A stretch of 5,808 nt of DNA from IMG/VR virus record IMGVR_UViG_2548876695_000016. One strand, given 5' to 3'. Positions 179 to 3,902 of the stretch are shown here, in pieces. Numbering within the stretch: position 1 is the first letter of the stretch; each line of letters starts with the position of its first letter. A program made the position numbers and the translations under genes. The notes under the pieces are model-generated. The model did no database searches. It was given only the letters and a program-made list of their open reading frames with translations, and had not been told where the DNA came from. Source of the stretch: a virus (Duplodnaviria; Heunggongvirae; Uroviricota; Caudoviricetes).

Positions 179-205
179 AAAAAAAAGGCTGCGCAATGCG
201 CAGCC
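179..205 (-). terminator. Rho-independent terminator on the minus strand
   Basis: Minus-strand RNA would form an 8-bp GC-rich stem (GGCUGCGC / GCGCAGCC, plus coords 187-194 and 198-205) with a 3-nt loop, immediately followed by U8 (plus-strand A8 at 179-186). About 85 nt upstream of the left-edge gene start. Confidence 0.85.
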
Positions 206-634: not shown

Positions 635-1393
635 TTAAATTCTGGTCCTTACAATATCAACCTGAAGATTCTTATCTTGTGCTGATTGATAAATGACAAA
701 CCTTTTACTACCTGCATTGAAAGAAGTAGACAAAACCAGACAATTATCATAACGAGCAAGAACATAATACCAACCATCATTATAATTAATCATTTCATAT
801 TCTTTCTTAAACTGTGGTTTGTAATATCCTGTCAGAAATGAAAAAAGCCAAAAATATGCCACAAAAGCAATCATCACAATCTCAAAAAAATGTTTTTTTA
901 TAAATGGCTTATCATAGAAGCATGATACCGATAAAAATCGCCCATAAGATCTTATCGAAATTGTAACCGCCAGCGCAATCGCTGCTGACAGTAGCAAAAG
1001 AGGTACCTGAATCTTCTGTCTCAATATAGAAAACTCAATAATTGCCGGCACAAACAATAATTCCACAGCAAAATAAAGGCGAAATACATTTAGCTCTTGC
1101 ATAGAATGTTTTCTTTTCACTGCGAAAAAGAATACAACACCAATACCCCAACCGATAAGAAATATAGCAATGACGATAACTGCAAAAAATAAACTTCTGG
1201 CAACATCATCAACACCTGCACCTACAATCCACCATGGGAAGCCGTAGTAAAAAGAAGTACCCCATCCATAGAAATAAGCACTCCCCCATCCAAGGCATCC
1301 CATGTAGGCAATAAAAAGTGAAGAACTCCTGAGCAGCGCACCATCCTTCATAACCACCCCAATACAAGATGATAACATTGGCTTACAACTCAT
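635..1393 (-). CDS. Hypothetical polytopic membrane protein (cargo gene, unknown function)
   Basis: 252-codon ORF with no competing long ORF in other frames; visibly AT-rich relative to flanking phage genes. About five hydrophobic helices (approx. residues 25-59, 67-91, 102-123, 129-147, 166-189), basic loops (KRKH, KKH), then a ~60-aa Tyr-rich hydrophilic C-terminal domain. First ATG at 1393 has no clear SD; in-frame ATGs at 1378 and 1351 (the latter preceded by GGGGTGG) are alternative starts. Confidence 0.7.
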   Translation of the reverse strand: MSCKPMLSSCIGVVMKDGALLRSSSLFIAYMGCLGWGSAYFYGWGTSFYYGFPWWIVGAGVDDVARSLFFAVIVIAIFLIGWGIGVVFFFAVKRKHSMQELNVFRLYFAVELLFVPAIIEFSILRQKIQVPLLLLSAAIALAVTISIRSYGRFLSVSCFYDKPFIKKHFFEIVMIAFVAYFWLFSFLTGYYKPQFKKEYEMINYNDGWYYVLARYDNCLVLSTSFNAGSKRFVIYQSAQDKNLQVDIVRTRI

Positions 1394-1490: not shown

Positions 1491-1514
1491 AAAAAAAACC
1501 CACTCGGCAGCGGG
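1491..1514 (-). terminator. Intrinsic terminator just downstream of the Q-like gene (candidate tR')
   Basis: Minus-strand RNA CCCGCUGCCGAGUGGG forms a 6-bp stem (including one G-U pair) with a GCCG loop, followed directly by U8 (plus-strand A8 at 1491-1498). The plus-strand equivalent has an A-C mismatch, so it is orientation-specific. Confidence 0.55.
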
Positions 1515-1550
1515 TTTATACATTTTTTACAACATACCAAATTTGCATGA

Positions 1551-1579
1551 AGTATATGGCTTTTAATCCAGTTTTGCAA
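1551..1579 (-). promoter_or_regulatory. Candidate sigma70 late promoter (pR'-like) overlapping the 3' end of the Q-like gene
   Basis: Minus strand: -35 TTGCAA (1579-1574), 17-nt spacer, -10 TATACT (1556-1551). Predicted start near 1544 gives a ~50-nt transcript ending at the 1491-1514 terminator; the initial transcribed region contains -10-like elements (TATGTT, TGTATAAA) of the kind that induce sigma-dependent pausing at Q-utilisation sites. Confidence 0.4.
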
Positions 1580-2336
1580 TATTTTGCTGTAAAAATGCTG
1601 CCTTTTGTTTTGAACGTGTTCTCGTCACAAGCAATAAAGCATCACTATCAAGCTGTAGAAAAATGTGCTTCATTGCAACCCAGCGTTCAGTAAATGTCTC
1701 GGACCAGTTTTTTGTTGTCACTCCCACCAATGATGCCAGTGTCTGGTATTCATAGGCCTCACGCCCTGCAAGTTCGCTCTTCACATCCTGTGCAGCCAGC
1801 CAGATTAACGTCTTCAGGCGATCCAGTGTCTTACCTGCAATTTTTCTGTTACTTAACAAATCTTTAAACTCGCTCCATGCCCATTGCGTTATGGTGACCT
1901 GATGCCCCCATCGAACGCTTTCGCTGTAACACCAAAGCAACCATGCTTTCTGATGTTCATCGAGAGACAAAACCGCGCGGCGCCATGAAGAGGTTGAGAA
2001 TTCAACCGGGCTGACCAAAGCAATGGATGAACCTTTTGCGTACGACTGCTTACCGGAAGTCGGCGTATTATCCAGCGTAATCATCTTGCCAGTTACCACA
2101 TCCAGAATGCGCGGCTTCTTTCGTTTGTATGTACCAGTATCAAATTGTGCATGCTCCTGCCAGGCTTCGAGCTGGCCTTTCGTTGCTCCGTTCAAGTCAG
2201 CAGTAGCTGCCATAAGTTGCTCACGAACATACTGTAAATATTGGGTATTCATGCAGTAAATCCTTTCTATATTTTGGCATAATTCTTCAACATTCGGTAA
2301 TCGTTCAAAACCGAATCGGGGAAACGACATAAGCAC
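1563..2336 (-). CDS. Putative late-gene antitermination protein Q (non-lambda Q family)
   Basis: 257-aa ORF (track start is GTG at 2336; an ATG at 2330 gives 255 aa) in the Q position downstream of nin genes, followed at once by a promoter-like element and terminator. It replaces a lambda-type Q whose 5' remnant lies at 3813-3902. Family assignment is by position and recalled size of ~250-aa Q proteins, not sequence comparison. Confidence 0.6.
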   Translation of the reverse strand: MLMSFPRFGFERLPNVEELCQNIERIYCMNTQYLQYVREQLMAATADLNGATKGQLEAWQEHAQFDTGTYKRKKPRILDVVTGKMITLDNTPTSGKQSYAKGSSIALVSPVEFSTSSWRRAVLSLDEHQKAWLLWCYSESVRWGHQVTITQWAWSEFKDLLSNRKIAGKTLDRLKTLIWLAAQDVKSELAGREAYEYQTLASLVGVTTKNWSETFTERWVAMKHIFLQLDSDALLLVTRTRSKQKAAFLQQNIAKLD

Positions 2337-2727
2337 AGGAGCCCCCAGCGACAGCGAAGGAGTTCTGATATATAAGACTCAGACATCATTCATTCCCCGG
2401 TTCTCCAATATCTGTTTCACTCATCATCCATAACTACCTGTAATTGCCCCCCTTTTTTTTGTAACAGTTCTTATATTGCTATATAGAATAGCCATTACTA
2501 ATGCATTTAAATTTAATAAAATAAAAATTATAAAAAACATAAAACACCACGTAAACACACTTAATAAAAACACCGTTACATTAAAAGATAATAAAAACCG
2601 CAATAAAAAACGAATAAATCAATTGTCTCACGCAATTATAAAACATCATATTGATTACGCACCTTGTATTACAAACTCATGTATGTAAAATACGCGCACC
2701 ATTCAAAAAAAAGGAAGACAATAACAT

Positions 2728-3687: not shown

Positions 3688-3812
3688 CTGAATTGAATTC
3701 AATCAAAATAACATAAGTCCAACAAAAACATAAAGTGCGAAATGAATGCCAGCTCCATTTATTTCGCACTATAAAAGATTAAAAGTTGCAATAAAATAAT
3801 AAAATGACTCAG

Positions 3813-3902
3813 TTACGAAAACCAATAAACTGTGGCCAGTAGTGAGTCGCTCATCATCGGGCTTTTTGGCGAATGAAATTTAGCTACGCTTTCGAGTCTC
3901 AT
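3813..3902 (-). pseudogene. 5' remnant of a lambda-type Q antiterminator gene (29 codons then stop)
   Basis: Minus-strand ATG at 3902-3900 overlaps the phosphatase stop (ATGA) and reads [29 protein letters not shown]. The first 20 residues equal the lambda Q N-terminus as I recall it ([25 protein letters not shown]...); similarity decays over codons 21-27 and the frame terminates. Confidence 0.75.

Follow-up and report, generated by a model that had tools for sequence, protein, structure and literature searches.

Read on the reverse strand, positions 1491–1579 of the analysed DNA (the window, a stretch of 5,808 nucleotides) very probably hold the late regulatory cassette of phage 434, which consists of PR', a pause element, and tR' and is orthologous to that of phage 82. 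In the GenBank record of phage 434 (OL657226) the Q gene and the terminator are annotated, but neither the promoter nor the pause element, and the cassette, not annotated before, belongs to a type that has been studied in great detail. Judged from its sequence, it fits the Q82 type on every membership feature that could be checked, except for the G/C-rich segment at +15–17. In cassettes of the Q families the promoter is constitutive, and the sigma-70 retained by the polymerase re-binds a -10-like element, whereupon the polymerase scrunches and pauses (PMC5001585, PMC4914094, PMC9388147). The paused complex is engaged by DNA-bound Q, together with NusA in the case of lambda Q and 82 Q, and the modified polymerase then ignores terminators (PMC5001585, PMC4914094, PMC9388147).

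The segment 1380–1700 of the window (minus strand) matches Escherichia phage 434 (OL657226.1) with 100% identity over its full length in a BLAST search against phage records. In the phage 434 record the window corresponds, in reverse orientation, to the nin-Q-late junction. The gene order is ninF, ninG, a Ser/Thr phosphatase gene, a 29-codon stub of a lambda-type Q gene, lpxR (on the opposite strand), a ylcG-like ORF, the 'Q82-like' antiterminator gene, and the annotated terminator (1514–1489), followed by the genes of a membrane protein, TciB (DUF3927), and an esterase. The stub corresponds to the N-terminus of a lambda-type Q (~3804–3893, minus strand), lies directly behind the phosphatase gene, and points to the replacement of an ancestral lambda-type Q by lpxR, ylcG, and the Q82-type Q/PR' module. 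The ~300 bp between the divergent lpxR and ylcG/Q genes (2400–2727) are very rich in A+T and probably hold the lpxR promoter region. The literature search returned no paper on the 434 genome.

The same block is found in prophage Sp3 of E. coli O157:H7 Sakai, with ECs_0815 as Q and ECs_0816 as the membrane protein. With a 201-nt query spanning the element, matches were obtained in 726 of the 5,426 complete E. coli genomes, and the identity is at least 99% in 621 complete genomes of this species, mostly EHEC. Sp3 is a defective prophage, yet it keeps the element. The membrane protein encoded behind the terminator gave no match in a Pfam search. Farther along the late region, a full-length but sub-threshold match to STnc100 (RF02076) was found at 176–380 on the minus strand (score 41.4 bits, gathering score 47, E = 1e-6); the second terminator listed in Table 1, with its T8 run, forms the 3' end of this STnc100/PasD-like element. 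The match maps to ~901,197–901,401 of the Sakai genome and overlaps the Hfq-bound EcOnc13 of Sp3 (901,332–901,382), which lies in the intergenic region that heads the ranking for Hfq binding (Tree 2014 supplement). In a 2026 preprint STnc100 is related to PasD, and PasD is linked to Q and lpxR.

Along its entire length, the antiterminator of 434 matches PF06323 (E = 1e-91), and it shares 89% identity with the Q protein of phage 82, which has the same length. Of the three unrelated families of Q proteins, PF06323 represents Q82 (Yin et al. 2022, PMC9388147), and the suggestion of a non-lambda Q system, made in the preliminary description of this DNA, holds by homology. At the DNA level, the last 138 nt of the gene show a 94% match to phage 82 Q (BLAST). 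The same description took Q for a 257-aa protein, which was not borne out: both the annotation of OL657226 ('Q82-like', MNT start) and the length of 82 Q place the start at the ATG at 2252. The 257-aa frame is an over-extension from an upstream GTG, and the added part, within 2252–2389 (minus strand), overlaps a YlcG-like ORF of 40 aa (2267–2389). The Q gene ends with a TAA stop codon (1565–1563, minus strand), and its product is the sole intact Q in 434, since the lambda-type gene is reduced to the stub. A search of the PDB (2026 copy) with this Q82-family protein found no detectably related chain, thus the family is still without a solved structure.

Table 1. Features of the late regulatory region of phage 434, in window coordinates
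Feature	Position	Strand	Basis or remark
Q antiterminator gene, 229 aa, Q82 family	1563..2252	-	PF06323 match, identity to 82 Q
PR' -35 hexamer TTGCAA, in the last Q codons I-A-K	1574..1579	-	promoter scan
17-bp spacer, presumed site of the Q-binding element (QBE)	1557..1573	-	Wells et al. 2016, PMC4914094; identity to the 82 type over -35..-17
PR' -10 hexamer TATACT	1551..1556	-	promoter scan; same register in the family
Predicted transcription start AAA, +1 = A1544	1542..1544	-	7th base after the -10 hexamer
Predicted sigma-70-dependent pause element: TG (+6/+7), G, TATGTT (+9..+14)	1531..1539 (TATGTT 1536-1531)	-	family register, homology to 82
Predicted pause site TGTA, +23..+26, U25 = 1520	1519..1522	-	same tetranucleotide and register as in the 82-type sequence
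TGTATAAA, +23..+30	1522-1515	-	direct reading of the sequence
Intrinsic terminator tR', 9-bp stem 1517-1509/1504-1496, loop GCCG, T8 1498-1491	1491..1517	-	terminator scan, fold
Terminator hairpin AAACCCGCU-GCCG-AGUGGGUUU	1517-1496	-	followed by the T8 run 1498-1491
Membrane protein (cargo), 247 aa, first gene behind the terminator	635..1378	-	CDS CPT_434_68 / ECs_0816
Second strong intrinsic terminator, farther along the late transcript	187..205	-	8-bp stem, 7 G-C pairs, T8

The consensus scan of the window finds both PR' (9/12 match) and tR', in agreement with the preliminary description, which placed a sigma-70 promoter over the last Q codons and proposed a transcript of ~50 nt that ends at a hairpin with a U8 tract. 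The predicted leader has ~51–54 nt (about 53) and ends at about +54. When folded as 54 nt, it has a minimum free energy of -15.3 kcal/mol (z = -3.25), and the terminator hairpin folded alone gives -12.0 kcal/mol. The TATGTT hexamer of the predicted pause element keeps the T-12, A-11, T-10, and T-7 positions of the -10 consensus, and the predicted pause site is located only ~5 nt upstream of the terminator stem. A weak hairpin (+8..+27), also present in the leader fold, was rejected as a feature, as it is not conserved in other short leaders.

Two -10-like repeats had been proposed in the leader as causes of sigma-dependent pausing. The one at +9..+14 (TATGTT), preceded by TG at +6/+7, was retained, while TGTATAAA, beginning at +23, is probably not a second pause-inducing element. 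Its TATAAA lacks the critical final T, and the segment is not kept as a -10-like box in relatives. The preferred reading is the pause site TGTA joined to the A-rich base of the terminator stem, with the A-run pairing with the U tract.

The reference for the 434 cassette is the PR' of phage 82, in which the -10-like element is nearer to consensus, an extended -10 motif and GCC at +15–17 are present, and the pause occurs at +25/26, where the RNA ends in U (Bird et al. 2016, PMC5001585). The QBE lies between the -35 and -10 elements, within -31..+30 of 82 PR' (Wells et al. 2016, PMC4914094). The deposited phage 82 record ends at the Q stop codon, and a full-text search of the literature for the 82 PR' sequence string returned only unrelated papers. 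Because of the end of the record, loci with an 82-identical Q gene (L071 and L073, 690/690 identical nucleotides) were used for the downstream sequence. Downstream of Q, these two loci read TTGCAA-17-TATATT-TCATAT-AAATCTGATATTTTGCCAATGTTGTAC..., with an extended -10-like TG-A-TATTTT at +6..+14, GCC at +15–17, and T at +25. The sequence appears to fit the published description of 82 PR' (extended -10-like element, GCC, U+25, QBE within -31..+30). The numbering, with +1 placed at AAA, yields GCC at +15–17 and T at +25 in the 82-Q-identical relative, as published for 82.

Without gaps, 434 and the 82-type sequence share 30 of 35 positions over -35..-1 and 18 of 26 over +1..+26, and then only 8 of 34. 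The shared bases within +1..+26 include the TG, T9-A10-T11, T13-T14, G15, and TGTA at +23..+26. The stretch -35..-17 is identical in both, and the same bases also encode the C-terminus of Q. In common with phage 82, 434 has the -35 hexamer, the 17-bp spacing, the AAA start, the TG-n-TAYnnT motif at +6..+14, TGTA at +23..+26, a downstream intrinsic terminator, and a Q of 229 aa. The differences are TATACT in place of TATATT in the -10 hexamer, TATGTT in place of TATTTT in the pause hexamer, and GTA in place of GCC at +15–17. Beyond +26, 434 has no homology to the 82 type. The terminator stem ends at +46–49 in 434 and at ~+71–74 in the 82-type sequence, which results in a leader of ~53 nt in the former and ~80 nt in the latter, and the +15..+35 hairpin of 82-type leaders is missing in 434. 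An origin of the 434 leader by recombination at ~+15, where the BLAST homology ends, was considered and dropped, as the ungapped homology extends to +26 and whole short leaders homologous to that of 434 are found beside divergent Q genes (L117, L099).

The G/C-rich, pause-stabilising segment at +15–17, absent from 434 (GTA), modulates the pause in 82 and is not a defining part of the cassette. In the case of 82, the exchange of GCC for AAA at +15–17 shortens the pause half-life ~5-fold, and the effect on pause strength is 2- to 5-fold (PMC5001585). With GTA at these positions, the 434 pause may therefore be weak or shifted.

The register was followed through the Q82 family in 80 loci from viral contigs, 62 usable bacterial loci, and eight annotated phages. 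The bacterial loci were taken from contigs of one genome per species, have Q identities of 50–73%, and come from ~60 enterobacterial species. TAYnnT is found exactly 14 nt past the -10 hexamer in 87 of the 88 distinct sequences, and 86 of these also have the 17-bp spacer, so that the complete register (-35 TTGCxx, 17 bp, -10, 14 nt, TAYnnT) is present in 86/88. TTGCxx occupies the same register in all surveyed Q82-family loci, and the -10 hexamer of the relatives, at the same position, reads TATATT, CATATT, or TACATT. The register remains constant while the inner positions of the hexamers and the flanking bases vary and the identity of Q drops to 50%; TAYnnT retains the -10 positions read by sigma region 2. 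The three bases after the pause hexamer are GCC or CGC in all sequences but the 434 type (GTA) and L117 (GTC).

Of 100 distinct sequences, 93 have a hairpin with a U tract no farther than ~110 nt from +1. The hairpins belong to at least five unrelated sequences and stand at a similar place, thus the position of the terminator is conserved, whereas its sequence turns over. Two classes can be distinguished by the stem end: a short one, at +45/46 (the minimal-stem call of the script), and a long one, at +62..+89, which includes phage 82. The short class comprises the 434 type and sequences from Kluyvera, Superficieibacter, Scandinavium, Citrobacter, Enterobacter, and one further enterobacterium. 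A hairpin homologous to 434 tR' (CCCGCC...GCGGG) is found at +31..+46 in six other genera; in the 5' part, the leaders of the short-leader relatives share with 434 only the pause element. The short leader of 434, which had been compared with the ~194-nt 6S RNA of lambda, is indeed far below it in length; it is not specific to this phage and belongs to one of two leader classes that recur in the family. The long-leader relatives (L071/L003, +15..+35; L007; L008) have a hairpin that begins at the GCC after the pause hexamer. Its versions (GCCA...TGGC, GTCG...CGAC, GCTGCC...GGCGGC) differ in sequence between subfamilies with the pairing kept, and the 434-type short leader lacks it.

In respect to statistical weight, the promoter and the terminator alone are not significant, since such sites are no commoner in the window than in shuffled sequences (promoter-like sites, 12 observed and 12.7 expected; terminator-like sites, 6 observed and 5.3 expected). 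A single copy of the composite pattern TTGC-N19-TATNNT-N14-TAYNNT, at 1531–1579, is present in the window, with 0.01 expected. The significance of the element results from this single composite pattern, from the arrangement kept in relatives, and from the z value of the leader fold.

The late promoter, the pause element at ~+9, the short leader, the terminator, and the non-lambda Q of the preliminary description hold because of the membership of this Q in the Q82 family and the gap-free homology to the 82-type promoter-to-pause segment. The comparison of sequences thus supports a late promoter in 434 that is gated by Q and has a sigma-dependent pause, and for it we infer the start site, the pause, the binding of Q, and the Q-dependent read-through; the literature searched contained no experimental reports on the element in either 434 or Sp3. 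In the proposed mechanism, sigma-70 RNA polymerase would start constitutively at A1544 from TTGCAA-17-TATACT, and region 2 of the sigma factor still bound to the polymerase would re-bind TG-n-TATGTT (+6..+14) in the non-template strand. The polymerase would then scrunch to ~U+25 (1520) and pause. Without Q it would resume and terminate at the hairpin and U8 tract (+28..+54; end at 1491–1494), with the release of a ~53-nt RNA. In the presence of the 229-aa Q82-type protein, Q would bind its site in the promoter DNA and engage the paused complex with NusA, and the modified polymerase would read through tR' and later terminators, such as that at 205–187. The read-through would cover the membrane-protein gene, tciB, the STnc100-like region, the esterase gene, and the lysis and structural genes.

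An alternative reading, which we consider unlikely although it could coexist with PR', assigns TTGCAA to a CII-activated promoter of the plus strand, paQ (TTGC-N6-TTGC, 1574–1587), with an RNA antisense to Q. As TTGCAA is palindromic, the PR' and paQ readings use the same bases. In OL657226, TTGCAATATTTTGC (1574–1587, plus strand) is annotated as a CII site with the 'paQ' -35, and TTGC-N6-TTGC is also present in 82-type relatives from E. coli (L003, L004); however, the GenBank record marks several CII-type sites by consensus alone. Three copies of the CII motif are present in the window (1.81 expected), and 53 of 200 shuffles reach this number. Its conservation is confounded, because the motif is located in coding sequence, and in most other genera the second TTGC is absent or mis-spaced. 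No plausible -10 is found ~13 nt downstream, where 1600–1605 reads GCCTTT, and paQ leaves the conserved pause element and the terminator of the other strand unexplained. The PR' cassette could also be a fortuitous match or a dead relic, with the hairpin merely ending the Q transcript and late transcription of 434 starting elsewhere. The chance frequency of promoter- and terminator-like sites in the window and the defective state of Sp3 would be in line with this, but the family-specific composite pattern is found only at this place in the window, and the register and the terminator are kept across genera. Since 434 is viable and has no other intact Q, we find a relic or chance match barely credible.

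The predicted leader RNA was also considered in its own right. By analogy with StxS, the ~53-nt constitutive transcript could act in trans as an Hfq-dependent small RNA besides its gating role, which we regard as very unlikely. StxS (Sy, Lan and Tree 2020) is likewise a short constitutive transcript from an antiterminated late promoter of an EHEC prophage, and its authors propose such promoters as a source of small RNAs (PMC7547250). It is derived from a 258-nt leader, which is processed by RNase E to 74 nt, and binds Hfq (PMC7547250). The 434 leader has no sequence similarity to StxS. It does have an A/U-rich 5' part, the terminator hairpin, and the U8 tail, and the retention of the element at ≥99% identity in the 621 genomes, even in the defective Sp3, speaks for this reading as well. 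In contrast, outside the pause element the 5' part of the leader differs among the short-leader relatives. Unlike StxS, the 434/Sp3 leader is not listed as Hfq-bound in the crosslinking tables for Sakai (Mol Cell 2014), which contain no small RNA or Hfq-bound region for ECs0815-ECs0816, while the next interval, ECs0816-ECs0818, is ranked first. Absence from a list is weak evidence; it is neutral for the activity of the promoter and gives no positive support for the transcript.

The only Rfam match on the element, STnc240 (RF02074), was rejected as a chance match, being below the threshold (score 28.2 bits, gathering score 55, E = 0.45) and representing an unrelated core-genome locus of Salmonella between yeeY and yoeI. 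HnrS, a multicopy prophage small RNA, is unrelated as well, as it is located in Sp9, Sp10, and Sp12 and not in Sp3.

The PR'/6S RNA/tR' region of lambda follows the same logic as the 434 cassette (Q gene, constitutive promoter, -10-like pause element, terminator, late genes; PMC9388147). Lambda Q belongs to PF03589 and is unrelated to the Q82 family. The lambda pause is at +16/17, in comparison with +25 in 82 (PMC5001585), and the lambda leader extends to +193 (PMC4914094), in comparison with ~53 nt in 434. In phage 2B8 (L011, 1380–1640), a lambda-type Q and a lambda-like PR' precede the same terminator/membrane-gene block as in 434. Relative to positions 1380–1516 of the window, the 2B8 terminator has a degenerate hairpin, CTGCCGCCGAGTAG, followed by T5. 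Thus, the terminator and cargo block occurs behind two different types of Q/PR'.

In general, the current understanding of antitermination is unchanged by the finding. It is distinctly unlikely that the ~53-nt leader of 434 and Sp3 is more than a by-product, i.e., a constitutive prophage small RNA with its own targets or a functionally distinct short-leader class of Q82 cassettes. Such a class would be set apart by the short distance (~5 nt) from the pause site to the terminator stem and, in 434, also by the lack of the G/C-rich pause stabiliser. If it were real, Q would have to make the polymerase resistant to termination less than 30 nt from loading, which would constrain models of the Q82 mechanism. 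The finding locates the predicted late promoter and pause signal of the classical phage 434 and of the EHEC prophage Sp3, which carries lpxR and, downstream, a small-RNA region strongly bound by Hfq. For the Q82-type cassettes as a family, it shows a fixed register, two classes of leader length, and turnover of the terminator sequence. The results may be of use in prophage annotation and provide natural variants for the study of Q82 loading, namely GTA in place of GCC at +15–17 and a terminator 5 nt past the pause site.
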